From assembly GCA_035388025.1 (NCBI GenBank), contig DAOOPA010000001.1, positions 1 to 48,620 on the forward strand: a stretch of DNA of 48,620 bases, given 5' to 3'. Within the stretch, counting starts at the first letter, position 1, and each line of letters starts with the position of its first letter. Below the pieces are notes generated by a model, which searched no databases, was not told the origin of the DNA, and was given only the letters and a program-made list of their open reading frames with translations. Origin of the DNA: a bacterium. GTDB lineage: Bacteria > Patescibacteriota > Patescibacteriia > UBA2196 > GWA2-42-15. The position numbers were made by a program, and so were the translations under genes. Below are positions 3,378-31,970 of this stretch, one piece after another.

Positions 3378-4685
3378 ATGAGAATAATTGCGGATCTACA
3401 TATTCATTCTAGGTTTTCGCGAGCTTGTTCGCGGGATTTGGTTTTGGAAAAAATTGATGAGACGTGCCGAGCAAAGGGTGTGAACGTGATCGGGACGGGA
3501 GATTTTACTCATCCAGAATGGTTTAAAGAGATGAAAGAGAGGTTGGTGGAGAAGAAAAGGGGGCTTTATGTTATTAAATCACAAGTTCCAAATCCAAAAT
3601 TCAAAATAAATTCCAAATTACAAATTTCAAACTTAGAACAAACAAGATTTATTTGCTCGGCGGAGATAGCGTGCATTTATTCTAAAGGCGGGAAATGTCG
3701 GCGGTTGCATGTGGTGATTTTGGCACCTGGTTTGGAAGCGGTGGAAAAGATAAATAAGGAATTAGGCAAGATAGGAAATTTAAAAGCTGATGGCCGACCG
3801 ATTTTGGGTTTGGATGTGGAGAGATTAGCGGAAATTGTTTTCGGCGTGGATGAGCGGTGCGCGGTGATACCGGCGCATATTTGGACGCCGTGGTTTGCAA
3901 TGTTTGGTTCAAAATCTGGTTTTGATAGTGTGGAGGAATGCTGGGGCAAGATGGCTGACAAAATTTTTGCCATTGAAACAGGGCTATCTAGTGACCCGGA
4001 GATGAATTGGCGGGTGAAAAATTTGGATCGGATGAGCATTATTTCCAATTCTGACGCGCACTCGTTGCCCAATATTGGGCGTGAGGCAAATGTATTTGAA
4101 ATCGAGAAAAATAAGTTGAGTTACGACGAGATAATTGAGGTGATAAAAAATAAAGATCCAAAAAATTTTTTGTACGCAATTGAGTTTTATCCAGAAGAGG
4201 GGATGTATCATTTTGATGGACATCGGACGTGCGGTATCAGCATGACACCGAAAGAATCACAATATAATAAAAATATTTGTCCTAAGTGCAAAAAGAATTT
4301 AACAATTGGGGTTTTGAATCGCGTGGAAGAATTGGCTGAGCGTGATCGCAAAGAGGGGTATGTGGATAAATCAAGAATTCCATTTATAAAATTGGTGGAG
4401 CTAGATAAAGTAATCGCCGAAAGTTTGGGGGTGAAATCTCGGAGTGCAAAACAGGTACAGAGCGAATATGATCGTTTGATAAAAAGTTTTGGCAGCGAGT
4501 TTGATATTTTATTAAAAATAAAAACAGAGAAGATCGCGGAAAGTGGTTGGCTGAAGATCGCAGAAGGAATTCAAAGAGTCAGAGAGGGAAGAGTAAATAT
4601 TCAGCCAGGATTTGACGGGCAATATGGAGAGATAAAAATTTTTAATGAGCAAAAAAACTTAAAGCAACAACTAAATTTATTTTAG
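3378..4685 (+). CDS. PHP-domain protein of the endonuclease Q / TIGR00375 type
   Basis: N-terminus MRIIADLHIHSRFSRACS is a PHP metal site. Also present are SNSDAHS and a CPKCKKNLTIGVLNRVEELA zinc-finger segment. It carries a low-complexity insert at 3581-3635. Confidence 0.6.
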   Translation: MRIIADLHIHSRFSRACSRDLVLEKIDETCRAKGVNVIGTGDFTHPEWFKEMKERLVEKKRGLYVIKSQVPNPKFKINSKLQISNLEQTRFICSAEIACIYSKGGKCRRLHVVILAPGLEAVEKINKELGKIGNLKADGRPILGLDVERLAEIVFGVDERCAVIPAHIWTPWFAMFGSKSGFDSVEECWGKMADKIFAIETGLSSDPEMNWRVKNLDRMSIISNSDAHSLPNIGREANVFEIEKNKLSYDEIIEVIKNKDPKNFLYAIEFYPEEGMYHFDGHRTCGISMTPKESQYNKNICPKCKKNLTIGVLNRVEELAERDRKEGYVDKSRIPFIKLVELDKVIAESLGVKSRSAKQVQSEYDRLIKSFGSEFDILLKIKTEKIAESGWLKIAEGIQRVREGRVNIQPGFDGQYGEIKIFNEQKNLKQQLNLF

Positions 4686-4848: not shown

Positions 4849-5381
4849 GGTGATCACCCCCTTTCTTTTGTAGAATAACCTTTCGCATGTGACGATTGAG
4901 AAAACTCAATCAACGACGAGCATGGGAAAGGAGTCTAATTTATAAAATTTACAAAAATATATTTTCAGCGAGATAAAAAATATTTTTTTGTAAATTTTTT
5001 GAGAGAAAAAGTTATCCACAATGATCTTGATATATTAATTATAAAATTATTTTGTCAAAATGTAAATAGATAAAGAGATAAAAATAAAAAATATTTGCGA
5101 TTTAACATCGGGATGATAATTTTTTAACTGTACTTGAAGGTGAGAAAATAAAAATATATTTTTGGCACCATAGATTGATAAAAATAAAAATATCGGTTGG
5201 TGTCGATATTGAAATAATAAGATATCTGTAGCAACTCTGAATTTTTTAATGGTCTCAAGATAATATTGTTGTCTTAAGGTATTTTATTTTGTGACCGATG
5301 GGTGGTGTGAGATTCAAACTGTTTAAAAAATAATGCCGTTATTTTCTTACTATTGTGTTTGGTTCCGCCTGCCATCGCCAT

Positions 5382-5454
5382 TGGACCGTACCGGATTCGA
5401 ACCGGTCACCCCTGCCTTGCAAAGGCAGTGCTCTACCAAATGAGCTAACGGCCC
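5382..5454 (-). tRNA. tRNA-Ala (anticodon UGC)
   Basis: Cloverleaf GGGCCGTTAGCTCATTTGGTAGAGC...CTGCC-TTTGCAA-GGCAG...GGTTCGAATCC. The G3:U70 alanine identity pair is present and no CCA is encoded. Confidence 0.9.
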
Positions 5455-5506
5455 GATGGCTATGGCGGGCGGGTCTAATCAATTGAGTTGACGGTCTATG
5501 AAATTA

Positions 5507-5755
5507 TTATTTCAAACCACCGGCCATGCGGCCGAAGATGGAGATGAGAAGTACTTCACCAATGCCGCTAATAGTCAAAAAAGAAATTATAATAATAGTA
5601 ATACCAATTAGTTTCCACATCAGGCGGGTGCCACCATAAGTGCCTAGGTAATGCTCGGCTGTTTCGTTACTACCGAAATTTTCCATCAGATAATTACTGT
5701 AGCGAACGAGTAAGAAGCCGACGATGATGGCTAGAAAGCTAAAGAAGTATTTCAT
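5507..5755 (-). CDS. hypothetical small membrane protein (82 aa)
   Basis: Two hydrophobic helices. It is an isolated ORF between tRNA genes. Confidence 0.45.
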   Translation of the reverse strand: MKYFFSFLAIIVGFLLVRYSNYLMENFGSNETAEHYLGTYGGTRLMWKLIGITIIIISFLTISGIGEVLLISIFGRMAGGLK

Positions 5756-5930
5756 AGAGGTATTTTAAAATATTTTTATTTAAGCCGGACTTGGTTTTTT
5801 GATAGATTGGTTATTGCGGTGGTGGCTGGTAAAAAATTTGAAAGTTTAATCAGTATATGACTCGCGCGGTGATGAACCCTGGATAAAAATCGATTGGTGG
5901 ATATGCGGGGTTCGAACCCCCCGCTTCATA

Positions 5931-6004
5931 TGGGTTTGACAGGTCTCGAACCTGTGACCTCCTCGGTGTAAACGAGGCGCTCTAACCAACTGAGCTACAA
6001 ACCC
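5931..6004 (-). tRNA. tRNA-Val (anticodon UAC)
   Basis: GGGTTTGTAGCTCAGTTGGTTAGAGC, then anticodon arm CCTCG-TTTACAC-CGAGG, then T arm ACAGGTTCGAGACCTGT. Confidence 0.9.
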
Positions 6005-6191
6005 ATATGGGGCGGGGCAGGCCTACTGACCTGTCCGATGTGCTCCCCGCTAGTCACTCAATGATAGCTTGCTGGCGTTGCGGGCAGGCAACCAAATGAC
6101 ATTGTATTAATATTGGTAGTTGCTGTTGTCATTCAATTATAATGCATGATTAATTATTAGGACAAAAAGTGTATAGTATTAATTGATTGAT

Positions 6192-6266
6192 TGGTAGTCC
6201 CTAGGGGAATCGAACCCCTGTTTTCAGGATGAAAACCTGATGTCCTAACCGTTAGACGAAGGGACC
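6192..6266 (-). tRNA. tRNA-Glu (anticodon UUC), CCA encoded
   Basis: GTCCCTTCGTCTAACGGTTAGGAC, then anticodon arm TCAGG-TTTTCAT-CCTGA, then GGGGTTCGATTCCCC and ACCA. Confidence 0.85.
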
Positions 6267-6426
6267 GAAACAAGGCAAAAGGCAAAATTCAAAAGGCAAA
6301 AGTAAGGTTTTATTTTTAAAAAATACCCCCTTGGTTTTGGGTGAATACAGAAATATGGTATCATTATCTGGACAATTTGGCAAGGTTATTTAATAATAGA
6401 TAAAATAGATTAAGATTTTGTAAAGT

Positions 6427-7572
6427 ATGAAAATTTTGGGATTAGAGACATCTTGTGATGAAACAGCCGCCGCGGTTCTAGACTTTAGAAATGGCGGTTT
6501 TTGGATACTCACAAGCGTGATAGCTTCATCTGTAGAACTGCAGGCCAAATATGGTGGAATTGTGCCGGAGGTAGCGGCGAGGAAACAGATAGAATTTATA
6601 ATGCCGGTTTTGGAACAGGGATTAAGCAAAACGCTCTTCAATGCGGCGGGCAGGCAAGAGGCAAAAATATTTGATGATATTGATTATATCGCGGTGACGA
6701 ATGGGCCGGGGTTGATCACAAGCTTGAGGGTGGGAGTGGAGGCGGCTAGAACTTTAAGTTATGTTTGGAATAAACCTTTAATCGCAGTGAATCATTTGGA
6801 GGGGCACATATATTCTGCTTTGTTGGCAGAACAGAATAAAATCCAAAATCAAAAATTTCAAAAAATGCAGGCTGTTAGGTTTCCGGCGATGGCTTTGGTG
6901 GTGTCGGGTGGACATACGGAGTTGGTTTTGATGAAGGATTATTTAGATTATAAAATAATCGGCGAGACACTGGATGACGCGATGGGCGAGGCCTTTGATA
7001 AAGTGGGCAAGATTTTGAATTTGGGCTATCCGGGCGGGCCGATAATTTCTAAGATGGCTACCGAGGGCGATAAGACAGCTTTTAATTTTCCGCGGCCGAT
7101 GCTCAAGAGTGGAGATTATAATTTTTCTTTTTCCGGACTAAAGACAGCGGTGTTATATAAACTCAAAACTCAAAACTCAAAACTCAAAATTAAGGAGAGG
7201 AAAGATTTGTGCGCGAGTTTTCAGGAAGCGTGCGTCGAAGTTTTGGTGAAAAAAATAATTAGGGCGGCGGAAGAATATAAAGTAAAGACAATATTGATCG
7301 GGGGCGGGGTGGCGGCGAATGAAAGTTTGAGGGGGAGACTGGAAATGGAAGTTGATAAAGTTAATTCAGTTAAAAAAGTTGATAAAGGGGAAAAGAAGAT
7401 ACAATTGTTAATGCCAGAACTAAAATATACCGGTGATAATGCGGTAATGATCGCTCTGGCCGGTTATTTTAAAATTAAAAATATAAAAAGACAGGAAGGT
7501 AAAAGAGGGAAGAGGCGTTTTGGTTGGCAGCAGACTAAAGCAGACCCGAATTTAGGCTTGAGACAGGATTAG
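6427..7572 (+). CDS. tsaD: tRNA N6-adenosine threonylcarbamoyltransferase TsaD (Kae1/Gcp family)
   Basis: MKILGLETSCDETAAAV, NHLEGHIYS, VSGGHTELV and GGGVAANESLR. It contains two low-complexity inserts. Confidence 0.9.
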   Translation: MKILGLETSCDETAAAVLDFRNGGFWILTSVIASSVELQAKYGGIVPEVAARKQIEFIMPVLEQGLSKTLFNAAGRQEAKIFDDIDYIAVTNGPGLITSLRVGVEAARTLSYVWNKPLIAVNHLEGHIYSALLAEQNKIQNQKFQKMQAVRFPAMALVVSGGHTELVLMKDYLDYKIIGETLDDAMGEAFDKVGKILNLGYPGGPIISKMATEGDKTAFNFPRPMLKSGDYNFSFSGLKTAVLYKLKTQNSKLKIKERKDLCASFQEACVEVLVKKIIRAAEEYKVKTILIGGGVAANESLRGRLEMEVDKVNSVKKVDKGEKKIQLLMPELKYTGDNAVMIALAGYFKIKNIKRQEGKRGKRRFGWQQTKADPNLGLRQD

Positions 7573-7706
7573 CTTTATAATATCTATATACTAGTGGTTA
7601 AGACAGATAACAACTTGGGTTAATATAAATAGTTTAGAATGGCCGAGGTTTATTTTTTGTGGTATATTAAAATAGTAAGAACCGCATCATATAAGTTAAT
7701 TTATAT

Positions 7707-8135
7707 ATGTTAGACAGTGATTCAACTTCATTTTGGGTTTTAGTTGAAATGATGAGAATCTTATTACCTTTAATTTTTATAGGTTTAGGTTTTTTGTTGG
7801 TTATTTTTTTAATAAAGAGAGGCCAACTATTTAGCAAAAAGAAGTTGAAGGTAGTTGCTTGGTTGCTGTTTTTCGTGTCATTTTTGGTGATATTATTTAT
7901 ACCTTGCGATAAAGAGTTAGAAGCAAAGATAGTTATTGCGTGGATGATAATTGTTGTGGTTATGTTGAGTATTTTTTTGTCTTTACTTTTAAGAAGCGAT
8001 AAATATAGAAATAGAGACAAGGAGGGGAGATTGTTGAGTGTTTTGGGTTTTGTGGCGACTTGGTTTGTGGTGATTTGGTTGTGTGCCTTGATCGCAGGGG
8101 CGGTTAGCTTTGGGCGTTGCGGTTTGAGGTTTTAG
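7707..8135 (+). CDS. hypothetical membrane protein (142 aa)
   Basis: About 4 hydrophobic helices, followed by a terminator at about 8154-8186. It is preferred over the antisense 7667..8020 ORF. Confidence 0.5.
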   Translation: MLDSDSTSFWVLVEMMRILLPLIFIGLGFLLVIFLIKRGQLFSKKKLKVVAWLLFFVSFLVILFIPCDKELEAKIVIAWMIIVVVMLSIFLSLLLRSDKYRNRDKEGRLLSVLGFVATWFVVIWLCALIAGAVSFGRCGLRF

Positions 8136-8203
8136 GTGTTTGGGGAGTTTAATAAAACAACCGGAGATTATCCGGTTTTTGTTTTATAATTCAGATATTG
8201 GTC

Positions 8204-8767
8204 CTAAATTTTATCACGAAGCTTTAGGTCGTAGATAATAGACTCAATTTTGTGAAGGTTGTGGCCGATGATTTCTAATTTGGTACGAGTAGCGCTGTTT
8301 CTGGTGATACTCAAGGGGATGGTCAGATTGTAGATGCCGGCGATATAGTCATGGATGGCTTTAACTTGTTTTTCATTTTGGTGGGCGAGACGCACGAGCT
8401 CGCCGGTTAGATCCGAGAGACCGCCAAGATAGGTATCGGGCGTGACTTGGAGGGAAACGGCACTTGGCAGGGGTTTGTTTTTTATATAATTATATAGAAG
8501 GATAGCTTCAACGTATTCTTCAAAGCCGATGCCAATGGCCGGATTGGCATAAAGATAGGGAAATTTTTTGAGTTTATTTTGCAAGGCAGAGAAAAGCTTA
8601 TTCATTTCGGGCAGGTTTTTGGCGACAGCTTCGGCGTGATCTTTGATCAAAAAACTGATAGTGCTTTTGGAAAGAATGCGTAAGCGATCAGAAAGATCCA
8701 TACAAGCGCTCCGTTCGCGATTATGTTCACTATAAAGTTTGTAGGGGATGGTCGGAAGTTTGGGCAT
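8204..8767 (-). CDS. translin-family protein (putative)
   Basis: The C-terminal half (TYLGGLSDLTGELVRLA...KIESIIYDLKLR) resembles the translin motifs DYLSGV...ELSRL...KVEEVVYDLSIR, recalled from memory. Confidence 0.5.
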   Translation of the reverse strand: MPKLPTIPYKLYSEHNRERSACMDLSDRLRILSKSTISFLIKDHAEAVAKNLPEMNKLFSALQNKLKKFPYLYANPAIGIGFEEYVEAILLYNYIKNKPLPSAVSLQVTPDTYLGGLSDLTGELVRLAHQNEKQVKAIHDYIAGIYNLTIPLSITRNSATRTKLEIIGHNLHKIESIIYDLKLRDKI

Positions 8768-8826
8768 ATAATTAAAATCAAAATTATGGTAGCCTGTTTC
8801 GCGGGATGAATTTATTAAAAATTTCT

Positions 8827-8902
8827 GGTGGGCATGCTGGGACTTGAACCCAGGACCCCCACTTTATAAGAGTGGTGCTCTAACCAGCTGAGCTACATGC
8901 CC
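8827..8902 (-). tRNA. tRNA-Ile (anticodon UAU), CCA encoded
   Basis: GGGCATGTAGCTCAGCTGGTTAGAGC, then anticodon arm CCACT-CTTATAA-AGTGG (anticodon TAT), then T arm CTGGGTTCAAGTCCCAG and ACCA. Confidence 0.85.
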
Positions 8903-8964
8903 GCAAATTAAGTCAAAATTAAAAGTTCAAAACTCAAAAGTAAAATAAGGAAAAATGTTTATTA

Positions 8965-9041
8965 TGGTGGGTCCGAGAGGAGTTGAACCTCTGACCTCTT
9001 GCGTGTCATGCAAGCGCTCTAACCAACTGAGCTACGAACCC
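8965..9041 (-). tRNA. tRNA-Val (anticodon GAC), CCA encoded
   Basis: GGGTTCGTAGCTCAGTTGGTTAGAGC, then anticodon arm CTTGC-ATGACAC-GCAAG, then CAGAGGTTCAACTCCTCT and ACCA. Confidence 0.9.
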
Positions 9042-16742: not shown

Positions 16743-17201
16743 ATGAAAAAGCTCATCCTGCTTACTTGCATCCTGGTCCTGGCGGCGATGTCGCCACCCC
16801 AATCCTTGGCGATGAGCGCCCAGACCATGGATGAAGCGATCACGTCGACCGGCCCGAGTGTGTCGCCGCCGGTTAGCAACAACAGCGTGTTACAAAACGC
16901 CAACATGACCCAAGGGCAAACAGTGGCCAACGTGGCGAATCTGGAACAGATGACGGTGCTGATGGTGATCAGCCCGCCAGTCGTGAGCAATGACGCAAAC
17001 TACATCGTGGAAAACGCCAATGAGGCCCAAAATCAACAATCGGCCAATAATGTGGCGAAAAGCGAAATGATGACGGCCAGTGCTGACCTCTCACCGACGA
17101 TAGGTATGGTGATGAAATTTACTATCGTGGCGATTGCTGACGAATTCTGCAATACCACCAATCCGGTAGCCATCGATCGTATGGTCTGTCTGCGCGTCTG
17201 A
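16743..17201 (+). CDS. secreted protein with two tandem repeats of about 38 aa (152 aa), unknown function
   Basis: Strong SD (GAAAGGAGGAATCCTT-ATG). Signal peptide MKKLILLTCILVLAAMSPPQSLA. The repeats are SPPVSNNSVLQNANMTQGQTVANVANLEQMTV and SPPVVSNDANYIVENANEAQNQQSANNVAKSEMMT. GC is high (about 60% in 16801-16860 by hand count). Confidence 0.65.
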   Translation: MKKLILLTCILVLAAMSPPQSLAMSAQTMDEAITSTGPSVSPPVSNNSVLQNANMTQGQTVANVANLEQMTVLMVISPPVVSNDANYIVENANEAQNQQSANNVAKSEMMTASADLSPTIGMVMKFTIVAIADEFCNTTNPVAIDRMVCLRV

Positions 17202-17262: not shown

Positions 17263-17300
17263 AGGGGTGATGCGCTATGCGTGTCACCCCCAATTTTTTT
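17263..17300 (+). terminator. intrinsic terminator after the secreted-protein gene
   Basis: GGGGTGA...TCACCCC hairpin followed by CAATTTTTTTG. Confidence 0.65.
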
Positions 17301-17671: not shown

Positions 17672-17746
17672 GCGGGTATCGTATAATAGCTATTATGCGT
17701 CCTTGCCAAGGACGAGAAACGGGTGCGATTCCCGTTACCCGCTCCA
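17672..17746 (+). tRNA. tRNA-Gly (anticodon GCC), atypical D- and T-loops, CCA encoded
   Basis: Acceptor GCGGGTA/TACCCGC and anticodon arm CGTCC-TTGCCAA-GGACG. The T-loop reads TGCGATT (G at position 55) and the D-loop reads ATAATAGCTA, where the UCC paralog has ATAATGGTTA. Its own terminator lies at 17753-17776. Confidence 0.75.
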
Positions 17747-17776: not shown

Positions 17777-17787
17777 GTTTGGGGAAA

Positions 17788-17826
17788 ATAAAAAAGCCCT
17801 GCTGTATTTGGTTTGGTGGCAGGGCT
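17788..17826 (-). terminator. intrinsic terminator of the rSAM-peptide operon
   Basis: On the minus strand, AGCCCTGC...GCAGGGCT (17795-17802 with 17819-17826) is followed by a T-run (the A-run at 17788-17795 on plus). Confidence 0.7.
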
Positions 17827-17848
17827 TACGAACCGAGGCGATCACGGT

Positions 17849-18001
17849 TTAGTTGTGTGGTTGGTCATCGTGGCGAGAGCAGGCACAGCTGGTTGGCTCT
17901 TGGGTTTTTTTGATACCCTCGATTCCCTTAAAGAGCCGATCCTCTTGTTCCTTTTGTTTGATAAGGAATAAGAGGATGAGAGGACTTATTAGAGGGGTCA
18001 T
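17849..18001 (-). CDS. unannotated 50-aa peptide, candidate RiPP precursor: MTPLISPLILLFLIKQKEQEDRLFKGIEGIKKTQEPTSCACSRHDDQPHN
   Basis: Hand translation. The ATG at 18001-17999 is preceded by TAAGGAGACGAAC (SD AAGGAG) and starts 10 nt after the rSAM stop. The TAA is at 17851-17849 and the terminator follows. Confidence 0.55.
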   Translation of the reverse strand: MTPLISPLILLFLIKQKEQEDRLFKGIEGIKKTQEPTSCACSRHDDQPHN

Positions 18002-18011
18002 GTTCGTCTCC

Positions 18012-19133
18012 TTACGAATTAGAACACCCTTTTGGTTTGAGTCCGGCTTGAAAATATAAAAGCCGGAGTGGATTGCATATCGAACAGATACAGCTTGCGC
18101 ATTGGACTAGGGGTTTATTTATTGATTTGGTTTGTTTTTTTAGTTTATACTTTATGAAGAAAGAAAATATATTAAAACCTCTACACATAACCCTGGCGGT
18201 TTGGCACGGGAGCACTTGGCCGGAGCTGGTGATATGAATGAAATATTTTCCGGCTTGGCAGGTTTGCTCAGGCGTTTTATCCGCTGGGGGATTGATGGAT
18301 TGTACCACGTCTGGGCAGTCTACCGCGTAATGAAGTGGTGTTGGGCTCCCAGAGAATGTCGGGGTAATACTACCGCTGACAAACCAACTAAAACCAAATT
18401 GTTGGCACAGGTTGATCATCTCATCAATCTCACGCTCATTTTTTTGGGTGATGATAATATTGATATGAGTGTTTATTCCAGAAGATTTTAATATTTTTAG
18501 GCCGGCTAGAAAGCAAGCATATGATCCACTAATGCCAGTATAACAGTTGTATGTTCTGGCGCTGGCTCCATACATACTTAGAGTAATTTGATAAGGTGGC
18601 TTTTCTTGGATAAGTTGCTTGAGTCGAGTATTTAATGAGAAATAAAATCCGTTGGTTTGGATTTTAATTAAAAAGCCTAGATCATAAGCTTCTTCGTATA
18701 AGTTACAGAAGTCTGGCGAACTGGTGGGTTCGCCACCTGTAAGCTGGAGCCAGGTGCAACCAAGTTTTTCCAGTTTTTTGAGGACCTTAATTTTTTGTTG
18801 ACAAGGTAGCTCTTGTTCTTTAATGCCTTTCATAACGCAGATAGCACAGTGGTATGGGCAATAATTGGTGACGGCCCAGCTGGCTTTGAGGATATTCATG
18901 CTCCCTTTTGGCCGGAGGATAAAAATATCCCTGGCGGTTTTTCCTTGGGTGTTTGTTCCCATACGAGCCAGAACTTTAGTCAGAGAATCACCGACCGGTC
19001 CGTCAAAAAGATAAACGGTCCTAATATATTCGTATTGATCAGCAGTTAAAACATACTCTAGATAAGCAGGGCGGCTGACCATCACCCACGCTTGTCTTGT
19101 TGAATCAAAGAAGACAACGACGTCGGGCTTCAT
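18012..19133 (-). CDS. radical SAM enzyme with C-terminal SPASM/twitch-like Cys cluster and an N-terminal extension of about 95 aa (putative peptide maturase)
   Basis: CPYHCAIC is a CX3CX2C cluster. GGEPT is a SAM-binding motif. CQAGKYFIHITSSGQVLPC fits C-x12-G-x4-C, followed by CASCICSIC. The SD is GAAAGGGAGGCTAT-ATG. Confidence 0.8.
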   Translation of the reverse strand: MKPDVVVFFDSTRQAWVMVSRPAYLEYVLTADQYEYIRTVYLFDGPVGDSLTKVLARMGTNTQGKTARDIFILRPKGSMNILKASWAVTNYCPYHCAICVMKGIKEQELPCQQKIKVLKKLEKLGCTWLQLTGGEPTSSPDFCNLYEEAYDLGFLIKIQTNGFYFSLNTRLKQLIQEKPPYQITLSMYGASARTYNCYTGISGSYACFLAGLKILKSSGINTHINIIITQKNEREIDEMINLCQQFGFSWFVSGSITPTFSGSPTPLHYAVDCPDVVQSINPPADKTPEQTCQAGKYFIHITSSGQVLPCQTARVMCRGFNIFSFFIKYKLKKQTKSINKPLVQCASCICSICNPLRLLYFQAGLKPKGCSNS

Positions 19134-19188
19134 ATAGCCTCCCTTTCTGTGGTTTTTAAGGTTGTTTGATTAATTTTATTTACCTTAT

Positions 19189-19217
19189 AGTTTAAGTCTT
19201 TATTCGGGAATAGTCAA
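19189..19217 (-). promoter_or_regulatory. promoter of the rSAM-peptide operon (TTGACT-N17-TAAACT on the minus strand)
   Basis: The reverse complement of 19212-19217 is TTGACT and that of 19189-19194 is TAAACT. This leaves a leader of about 50 nt carrying the SD. Confidence 0.5.
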
Positions 19218-19476: not shown

Positions 19477-20088
19477 TTAGATATTGAGGGATTTTTCATA
19501 TTGATTTAAATAACGTTCGATTTTTTTGATTTCATTTTTTAAGTCCTTTTTGCAGAAAGGTAAAGTGAGGTTGGTTACTTTTTCGTTGAATTTAAACTTT
19601 ACAAATTTAAGGGCATCGGTTGGGCTCATACCTTCCCTAAGTAAAGTTTTTAGAAACAGTGTGGTATTTTTTAAGGATAAAAATTTATAGCTATCCGCGT
19701 TGGCGATTATTTTGGCTCCCAGACTAGTGAATCCTGTATTTTCGTGGTGTCGCAAGACACCCTCTAATATTTTTTGTTTGTCCTCAGCTGGCAGGTTAAA
19801 TTTGTTTAAAAAATTTTTGGCGTCTTCATAGCACATCTTGGAGTGGTCCTCCATTTTGCCGATGGCCCTGGCTTTCCCTAGGCTTATATCTTCAAGGATG
19901 GTTCCCAGAAGAATTAATTTTTTGTTTACTTTGTAATAATTGGCGATTTTTTGTCCGCCAGCATTGGAACTATTGTAAGCCCAGGTTGAGGGGGCATCAT
20001 ATTTGTTTATTTCTTTTTTAGCCCAAATGTCAGCGGCTTCTATGGCGCGTTTATATTCGGCGATAGTTTGTTTGCTTTTTATTATCAT
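19477..20088 (-). CDS. hypothetical protein, possibly HD-superfamily
   Basis: Helical protein with LRHHENTG and NADSYKF. The assignment is weak. Confidence 0.35.
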   Translation of the reverse strand: MIIKSKQTIAEYKRAIEAADIWAKKEINKYDAPSTWAYNSSNAGGQKIANYYKVNKKLILLGTILEDISLGKARAIGKMEDHSKMCYEDAKNFLNKFNLPAEDKQKILEGVLRHHENTGFTSLGAKIIANADSYKFLSLKNTTLFLKTLLREGMSPTDALKFVKFKFNEKVTNLTLPFCKKDLKNEIKKIERYLNQYEKSLNI

Positions 20089-31441: not shown

Positions 31442-31526
31442 TGGTGCCCAGGGCGGGAATCGAACCCGCATGACCGAAGTCGCAGGATTTTAAGTCCTGT
31501 GCGTCTACCAGTTCCGCCACCTGGGC
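31442..31526 (-). tRNA. tRNA-Leu (anticodon UAA), CCA encoded
   Basis: GCCCAGGTGGCGGAACTGGTAGACGC, then anticodon arm CAGGA-CTTAAAA-TCCTG, a long variable arm, and GCGGGTTCGATTCCCGC. Confidence 0.9.
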
Positions 31527-31607
31527 AAGATAAGAGAAATTAAGAAATTAGAAACTGAGAAATTAAGGGTAGAATAACAAAGTAAGAGATGAAGTTTTTG
31601 TGGGAAA

Positions 31608-31679
<72 letters not shown>

Positions 31680-31777
31680 GAGATTAATTTTAAATTTCCA
31701 ATTTTCAATAATTTAATTTTTAAACTATTAAAATTACACGGTTATACTAACAAAGATATTATCTTTAGTAAAGAAAA

Positions 31778-31859
31778 TGCCGAAGGGGAGACTCGAACTC
31801 CCAAGGGTTGCCCCACATGCTCCTAAGGCATGCGCGTATACCAATTCCGCCACTTCGGC
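31778..31859 (-). tRNA. tRNA-Leu (anticodon UAG)
   Basis: GCCGAAGTGGCGGAATTGGTATACGC, then anticodon arm CATGC-CTTAGGA-GCATG, a long variable arm, and GGGAGTTCGAGTCTCCC. Confidence 0.9.
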
Positions 31860-31970
31860 ATAGCTCAGATTTATCTTAACCCAGCGGGAGGATAATTTCA
31901 AGGTTGGTGGTTTGGGATCTGTCAATTTTAATGATATAATAGGGACAGGCGGGAAAATTTTAATAGGGCT

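Follow-up and report, generated by a model that had tools for sequence, protein, structure and literature searches.

What is made by a pair of minus-strand genes, one for a radical S-adenosylmethionine (SAM) enzyme of 373 residues and one for a peptide of 50 residues, in the small genome of a Patescibacteriota bacterium? The pair lies on contig DAOOPA010000001.1, of which 48,620 nucleotides were analysed (referred to here as the window), and occupies 19217-17785 as a complete expression unit of promoter, radical SAM gene, peptide gene and terminator. An earlier, sequence-only reading had taken it for a candidate system for a peptide that is made on the ribosome and modified after translation (a RiPP), and the minus-strand layout, the motifs, the Shine-Dalgarno (SD) sites and the other features it quoted were all recovered, with their positions, when the sequence was read again. 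Peptide systems with radical SAM modification are well known, and uncharacterised families of them are common. The answer we favour, to which we give a little better than an even chance as a whole, is a two-gene RiPP-type cassette under its own promoter, in which a maturase and its precursor would make thioethers from Cys to Asp. That the enzyme and the peptide are a maturase/precursor pair, with the peptide as substrate, is by itself very probable. It is supported by the co-conservation of the two genes, the intact SAM-cleaving site, the SPASM domain, the maturase-like fold, and a leader that varies in front of a core that does not.

A chance origin of the small open reading frame (ORF) was rejected, since its conservation, purifying selection and co-occurrence with the enzyme place it far beyond chance. 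Five close relatives of the enzyme (52-69% identity) were found on metagenomic or metagenome-assembled genome (MAG) contigs. Each has a small ORF 3' of it that either overlaps the enzyme stop codon as ATGA or starts no more than 10 nt after that codon, behind an SD site, and the peptide gene is present in 6/6 orthologous loci. The ortholog peptides align with in-frame indels only, and dN/dS is 0.21-0.28 for those pairs whose synonymous sites are unsaturated; in the remaining pairs the synonymous sites are saturated and the peptide core is unchanged. Invariant across the orthologs is E-P-x2-C-x-C-x2-H-x-D (E35, P36, C39, C41, H44, D46). With the small ORF conserved 3' of all orthologs and bearing a coding signature, the proposal of a candidate RiPP cassette stands. 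The translation of the 50 codons is exactly that given by the sequence-only reading, which was mistaken in calling the ORF unannotated: NCBI already lists it, as hypothetical protein PLR18_00135. Searches of the peptides against NCBIfam and Pfam gave zero matches.

Judged by sequence comparison, the cassette belongs to a large, unnamed family of predicted modified peptides, called here the DDNP family, which is common to Streptomyces and the tiny-genome Patescibacteria. An exhaustive profile search with the enzyme gave 72 cluster representatives at E < 1e-30, many of them full-length matches including the N-terminal domain, and 429 relatives were found in a scan of species-representative genomes. 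The nearest (29-33% identity) come from MAGs of Patescibacteria (Falkowbacteria, Parcubacteria, Kuenenbacteria, Saccharibacteria), and more distant ones are in very many Streptomyces and in Catellatospora, Streptacidiphilus and Pseudonocardia. Enzymes of the family are homologous to the window enzyme over their full length at 26-33% identity, and have the same seven auxiliary cysteines. One Streptomyces enzyme cluster holds 439 member sequences, and one peptide is on more than 146 contigs. (A Streptomyces radical SAM cluster at 90% identity also lists members named tyrosine recombinase or integrase, which may be a clustering artefact.) The public names are 'radical SAM protein' and 'hypothetical protein' only. 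There is no NCBIfam model for the family, none of the representatives searched reached any NCBIfam cut-off, and literature searches on the core motif and on the gene combination found no description of it.

Precursors were surveyed in the 80 genome loci kept, from Patescibacteria, Streptomyces and Catellatospora. In all except one (79/80) the enzyme gene is directly followed on its 3' side by a small ORF that ends in the motif of the window peptide. The C-termini read ...IDLDELExxxCxCxxxDDNP[HYW] in Patescibacteria, ...DLDxVVESAECSCDAGDDNPH in Streptomyces, ...PGCNDDNPYR in a single-Cys Streptomyces subtype and ...SCACSRHDDQPHN in the window. Three elements are constant across the family cores: Cys, Pro, and one Asp or more. 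One or the other Asp of the DD pair may be missing (GD in locus L020, DS in L084), and the residue equivalent to C41-x3 is D, E, G or N family-wide; the more constant Asp is the one at Cys-x4 in the CxC type and at Cys-x2 in the single-Cys type. Pro is followed by Y, H, W, F, N or Q. The leaders of the relatives are acidic ([IV]xDLDxLxE) and have no hydrophobic N-terminus. Divergent leaders joined to a core that is held point to RiPP architecture, and the general plan of a RiPP cassette, ie a small co-conserved precursor gene with a variable leader and a fixed core, is what was found. The earlier statement that the peptide fits no named precursor family was correct, although the peptide does turn out to be a member of a large unnamed one. 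A hydrophobic precursor N-terminus is, from this comparison, specific to the window lineage: the five members of the lineage reach Kyte-Doolittle maxima (over 11 residues) of 2.2-3.0, and two other precursors of the family reach 0.0-1.35.

The features of the unit, and the third genes of related loci described below, are collected in the table. As a match to consensus the promoter is weak (9/12 positions only), and a consensus scan of the 3 kb around the unit gave 9 promoter-like matches where 6.8 +/- 2.6 would be expected by chance. TTGACT-17-TAAA[C/G/A]T is, however, kept in 6/6 orthologous loci, in three of which the upstream gene is a different one, on the opposite strand. Because both hexamers, 17 nt apart, persist despite different upstream genes, the promoter proposed from the sequence is more than chance, and the unit has its own. 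Orthologs show GGAGG or GGGGG at the position of the SD site of the radical SAM gene. From the stop codon of that gene to the ATG of the peptide gene is 10 nt; in the orthologs L004-L009 the two overlap as ATGA, with GGAGG before. The 10-nt spacing and the SD sites are consistent with translational coupling. The hairpin and T-run that had been read as a terminator are borne out by the fold (table), and comparable hairpin and T-run sequences lie 3' of the peptide gene in the orthologs; a consensus terminator scanner missed the hairpin because its loop is 16 nt long.

Features of the cassette in the window, and third genes of related loci (positions in the locus named)
Feature	Position	Strand	Basis
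Predicted radical-SAM/SPASM peptide maturase gene, 373 aa + stop	18012..19133	-	ORF list, PF04055, AlphaFold2, Foldseek
CX3CX2C cluster motif CPYHCAIC (C92, C96, C99)	18837..18860	-	invariant in orthologs and wider family
SPASM-like C-terminal domain, residues 273-373	18015..18317	-	alignments and hhalign
N-terminal domain, residues 1-80 (about 1-75), beta-beta-beta-alpha-alpha-alpha, putative leader-peptide-binding	18894..19133	-	AlphaFold2
Promoter, -35 TTGACT (19217-19212), 17-nt spacer, -10 TAAACT (19194-19189)	19189..19217	-	consensus scan and ortholog conservation
SD site GGGAGG of radical SAM gene, with a leader of about 50 nt before the gene	19138..19143	-	read from sequence
SD site AAGGAG of peptide gene, overlapping the radical SAM stop codon	18008..18013	-	read from sequence
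Intrinsic terminator, 9-bp G+C stem AAGCCCUGC/GCAGGGCUU, 16-nt loop, U-run	17785..17827	-	fold dG -19.5 kcal/mol, z = -3.64
Predicted precursor peptide gene, 50 aa + stop, MTPLISPLILLFLIKQKEQEDRLFKGIEGIKKTQEPTSCACSRHDDQPHN	17849..18001	-	3' of every ortholog; coding signature
Predicted core C39-A-C41-S-R-H-D45-D46-Q-P-H-N	17852..17887	-	family motif C-x-C-x3-[DE]-D-[NQ]-P-x
Hydrophobic N-terminal segment of precursor, residues 3-14, PLISPLILLFLI	17960..17995	-	Kyte-Doolittle
GNAT-fusion gene, L015	2654-3580		
GNAT-fusion gene, L016	4298-5248		
GNAT-fusion gene, L017	4179-5198		
GNAT-fusion gene, L018	1355-2416		
GNAT-fusion gene, L020	4035-5003		
GNAT-fusion gene, L022	1062-1991		
GNAT-fusion gene, L031	1141-2088		
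GNAT-fusion gene, L048	4183-5163		
APH-like gene, L024	4215-5021		
APH-like gene, L010	1772-2551		

The enzyme is a member of the radical SAM superfamily (PF04055, 50.1 bits against a gathering cut-off of 29.5). Pfam detects this core alone in it, and the precomputed Pfam assignments for the proteins P0001-P0006 are likewise PF04055 only. The GGEPT motif at residues 133-137 is invariant. The C-terminal domain was compared with the SPASM pattern CX9-15GX4C ... CX2CX5CX3C ... C, which holds two auxiliary [4Fe-4S] clusters. Seven cysteines invariant family-wide stand in SPASM order (C292-x12-G305-x4-C310, C345, C348, C350, C353, C370), the stretch CASCICSIC supplying C345/348/350/353, and two further invariant cysteines, C273 and C317, are present in the window lineage only. 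No direct match of the enzyme to PF13186 (SPASM) was obtained even at E <= 1. When aligned by hhalign with the C-termini of PF13186-bearing proteins, the domain gave a probability of 96.5% (E 1e-9) with all seven cysteines aligned. The order of the invariant cysteines and this alignment make the domain SPASM-type, in agreement with the SPASM/twitch-like terminus suggested from the sequence.

An AlphaFold2 (AF2) model built from 32 sequences (predicted local distance difference test (pLDDT) 92.5, predicted template modelling score (pTM) 0.91) has an N-terminal beta3-alpha3 domain, a radical SAM barrel and a C-terminal domain. The best Foldseek matches in the PDB were SkfB (E 1.6e-15) and SuiB (E 2.1e-14), with BlsE, MoaA, PqqE, CteB, anSME and viperin further down, and the predicted fold is thus closest to peptide maturases. 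The N-terminal domain (beta5-10, beta15-20, beta26-29, alpha31-42, alpha49-57, alpha67-70) adopts the same fold when predicted alone (AF2, pLDDT 88), and it is conserved across the wider family. Its topology fits a RiPP recognition element (RRE), which is a winged-helix beta3-alpha3, PqqD-like fold, and from topology and position the domain probably serves in peptide recognition. That the N-terminal extension could recognise a peptide had been suggested earlier, and the RRE-like topology agrees with this; the comparisons with known RREs gave no significant similarity, and the enzyme gave no match to PF05402.

Against NCBIfam the window enzyme gave 44 partial matches, the best 25 families ranging down to 36 bits. 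The matches are confined to residues 85-250 or so (up to 318 for MoaA) and all are far under the cut-offs: AhbD 80 bits (cut-off 500), PqqE 75 (381), MftC 64 (265), MoaA 58 (325), NirJ 56 (515), ScmF 55 (400), StsB (NF045574) 52 over profile positions 96-257 (625) and viperin 36 (180). The non-peptide families AhbD, MoaA, NirJ, anSME-like and viperin were rejected, there being no full-length score at cut-off for any of them. The best match of all, that to AhbD, is limited to the core, and the enzyme groups with no non-peptide radical SAM family, an outcome in favour of the earlier reading. A reading as a prokaryotic viperin with a part in defence (PADLOC pVip, 44-55 bits) was rejected because that match too is limited to the radical SAM core.

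In the mechanism we propose, the 50-aa product would be the precursor peptide. Its leader (about residues 15-36, ...FKGIEGIKKTQEP) would be bound by the enzyme, with the N-terminal beta3-alpha3 domain as the probable site, while the predicted core threads into the radical SAM active site. The [4Fe-4S] cluster of the CX3CX2C motif would cleave SAM, giving a 5'-deoxyadenosyl radical that abstracts a hydrogen atom from the core, and the two auxiliary clusters of the SPASM domain would position the substrate Cys and take up an electron. One thioether would form per Cys, from sulphur to a carbon of Asp45 or Asp46, in the manner of sacti- or ranthipeptides. The outcome would be two small nested rings, with a mass change of -2 Da per link. 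For the chemistry taken by itself, that the modification is a Cys thioether, we see the case as evenly balanced. It is favoured because Cys and a downstream Asp are constant, because the aromatic residue is dispensable, and because PapB and StsA/BlaA provide precedents.

PapB forms thioethers from Cys sulphur to Asp or Glu; n may be anything from 0 to 6 in its Cys-Xn-Asp substrates, and it also makes links that are nested (PMC9413430, PMC12373016). In the core of the window peptide, as in PapA (freyrasin), a Cys is followed by an acidic residue a few positions on (C41-x3-D45, C41-x4-D46). The window enzyme, however, stays below 36 bits with the PapB model (NF047865, cut-off 340), outside the best 25 families, and a DDNP-family relative, P0061, reaches 46 bits; PapA has six repeated CX3D motifs where the window peptide has a single C-terminal motif ending D-x-P-x, and the DDNP enzymes have a fused N-terminal domain of their own. 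The Cys-x3-Asp spacing that the sequence-only reading gave for PapB is correct (PMC9413430), but the likeness is a resemblance and does not extend to membership of the PapB family. In StsA/BlaA, CxC(xC) cores are cross-linked to residues shortly downstream, giving nested sactionine hairpins (PMC10288494). Their enzymes StsB/BlaB (Streptomyces sparsogenes) are actinobacterial radical SAM-SPASM proteins acting on CxC(xC) cores, and StsB is among the better core matches. The acceptors of StsA are Gly (CxCxC...GxGxG), whereas the window precursor has no Gly acceptors (PMC10288494); StsB is about 466 aa with a separate RRE protein, StsC, and the scores here are 52-87 bits against its cut-off.

SkfB and SuiB, RiPP maturases of solved structure that have a peptide-binding domain at the N-terminus, share with the window enzyme a three-part build of N-terminal domain, radical SAM barrel and C-terminal Fe-S domain, but their sequence identity to it is 14-18% and their precursors are unrelated. 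SkfB, whose twitch domain holds a single cluster, forms a thioether between Cys and Met, and SuiB joins Lys to Trp by a C-C link. The next-nearest relatives after the DDNP family (P0017, P0020) belong to peptide cassettes of the SynChlorMet type (Scm, with ScmE/ScmF), beside ScmC and PqqD genes and with a small ORF downstream; ScmF recurs among the NCBIfam matches. The window has neither an ScmC nor a PqqD gene, has another precursor, and its enzyme scores far under the ScmF cut-off. These SynChlorMet-like cassettes (L011 3685-5314, L012 4001-6135) are near Peptidase_C25 genes, and in L011 an ORF of 53 aa (5153-5314) is just downstream of the radical SAM gene. By analogy the window cassette would work like the sacti- and ranthipeptide systems, while it falls outside the PapB, StsB, PqqE, MftC, Scm and non-peptide groups against which it was compared. 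Within the DDNP family itself, the window precursor has the same position and the same C-x-C-x3-D-D-N-P-x end, and the relatives differ in having a third gene, acidic leaders and a CX2CX5CX2C stretch, which the window lineage does not have.

In the CxC-type relatives this third gene comes next after the one for the peptide and encodes about 310-350 aa, ie a region of about 200 aa at the N-terminus and a GNAT domain at the C-terminus. Copies of the fusion from Patescibacteria and from Streptomyces are homologues from end to end (28% identity over 278 aa, E 6e-38), and there is no NCBIfam model for it. In single-Cys (GCNDDNPYR-type) Streptomyces cassettes an APH-like kinase-fold gene stands in its place, and the two examples in the table share 45% identity. 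No orthologous contig carries the GNAT fusion. As most relatives have a third gene, the two-gene form is, on these gene orders, a lineage-specific reduction, and the earlier description of a minimal cassette holds for the window lineage but not for the relatives, in which a third gene is conserved. The lineage is rare, being found on a handful of contigs; a metagenome scan for it gave one further locus only, of the same type as L001.

Several observations weigh against the reading that we favour. The GNAT-fusion homologue is absent from the 48.6-kb window (tblastn, nothing better than E 0.13), and the product may for that reason be incomplete or different here. As the sequence-only reading had remarked of the unit, genes for a protease, a transporter or immunity are missing from it, and a scan of the genes in about 5 kb on either side found none there. 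The enzyme lies under the cut-off of every curated maturase family, and in the window lineage its four-Cys stretch is shortened to CX2CX1CX2C. With the N-terminal domain, Foldseek gave nothing significant (SkfB N-terminus E 1.2, TbiB1 RRE E 2.8-3.4), a profile search of PDB sequences gave zero matches, and hhalign against three PqqD-type RREs gave a probability of 1.4%. The conserved cysteines, moreover, need not be modified, and could be ligands of an auxiliary cluster or of a metal in the product.

The last point leads to the possibility that the same pair carries out another radical chemistry, such as a C-C or C-O cross-link at D-x-P-[aromatic], epimerisation, or an SbtM-type thiooxazole heterocycle, with the cysteines as cluster or metal ligands. 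Radical SAM-SPASM enzymes perform many peptide chemistries, and their function is unreadable from overall similarity (PMC10288494). In the 38/38 precursors first tabulated the residue after Pro is aromatic, some family members match the SbtM model partially (about 50 bits), and the window enzyme has PqqE and MftC high among its core matches. Another chemistry is the main rival, but we consider it rather unlikely. Several loci (L019, L027, L033 and others) have N or Q after Pro, so an aromatic acceptor is not required, and some precursors end at the aromatic residue, which excludes an aromatic-X-X cyclophane; the window peptide has neither the E-x3-Y of PqqA nor the C-terminal GVY of MftA, and every named-family score is far under its cut-off. 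A departure of a different kind would be a non-peptide substrate (heme or cofactor, nucleotide, lipid), with the small ORF an unrelated co-transcribed protein. The top NCBIfam scores to AhbD, PqqE and MoaA-type models, the pVip score over the core, and the presence of BlsE, MoaA and viperin in the Foldseek list could be read in this way. These matches, however, cover the shared radical SAM core only and fall 4- to 10-fold short of the cut-offs, a seven-Cys SPASM domain is missing from viperins and MoaA, and the best structural matches are peptide maturases. In the 79/80 loci the peptide and the enzyme stay together from one phylum to another, whereas every other neighbour differs, and we regard a non-peptide substrate as very improbable indeed.

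It is also conceivable, if quite improbable, that the product is an intracellular cofactor or metal-binding factor, like pyrroloquinoline quinone (PQQ) or mycofactocin, and not a secreted natural product. The core is near-identical between Actinomycetota and Patescibacteria, where antibiotics tend to diversify; the cassette lies among housekeeping genes in a small-genome MAG, the searches of its surroundings found no exporter or immunity gene, and Cys, Asp and His residues are suited to metal binding. Against this, neither a partner oxidoreductase nor a trimming enzyme of the sort present in pqq and mft clusters was found, the patchy distribution would be unexpected of an essential factor, and the hydrophobic N-terminus points to the membrane or to export. 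A more far-reaching version, improbable in our view, would make the family a new RiPP class whose core is near-constant because the product has a conserved cellular role, as a metal or redox factor or a signal, and is not an antibiotic. The window lineage would then have lost the GNAT partner and gained the hydrophobic N-terminus, which would direct the peptide to, or fix it in, the membrane of a small-genome bacterium that lives as an episymbiont.

Whichever chemistry applies to the maturase/precursor pair, the DDNP family is notable in being abundant, sharply defined, found in Streptomyces as well as in Patescibacteria, and open to immediate testing; bacteria of widely differing lifestyle are joined in it by a peptide core that is almost the same. 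The cassette is one of few concrete modified-peptide candidates from bacteria of the candidate phyla radiation, and the window lineage offers the smallest natural version for heterologous work. Short substrates, a minimal version of two genes and culturable Streptomyces analogues make the family a well-defined target for new enzyme chemistry.

Some further observations were made around the cassettes. A tRNA-Gly(GCC) gene (17672-17746, plus strand) converges on the window cassette. It is also found 3' of the cassette in L001 (about 3440-3530), L002, L003 and L095, and at the 3' end of L005, where the neighbours are otherwise different. In L001 a large serine recombinase of 538 aa (Resolvase + Recombinase + Zn_ribbon_recom) lies directly past the tRNA, and the conserved tRNA together with this recombinase suggests an integration hot spot beside the cassette. 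Regulator genes of the HTH_31/DUF5753 (WhiJ-like) and HTH_17 kinds border Streptomyces cassettes (L024 605-1729, minus strand; L048 730-2076, minus strand, and 5529-6329, plus strand).

Around the cassette the window carries housekeeping genes: ClpP, L32, NusB, RNase III, DUF167, metallophosphoesterase, endonuclease IV and trigger factor. At 16743-17201 on the plus strand is an ORF of 152 aa with a signal-peptide-like N-terminus (MKKLILLTCILVLAAMSPPQSLA) and no Pfam family, followed by a strong terminator-like hairpin at 17264-17290. Between the metallophosphoesterase and DUF167 genes is a minus-strand ORF of 203 aa with no Pfam match (19477-20088), and L001-L004 have a gene of the inositol-monophosphatase family where the window has this ORF. 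A 5S rRNA gene lies at 1-109 on the plus strand, and there are nine tRNA genes in all, with minus-strand clusters at 5382-9041 and 31442-31860.

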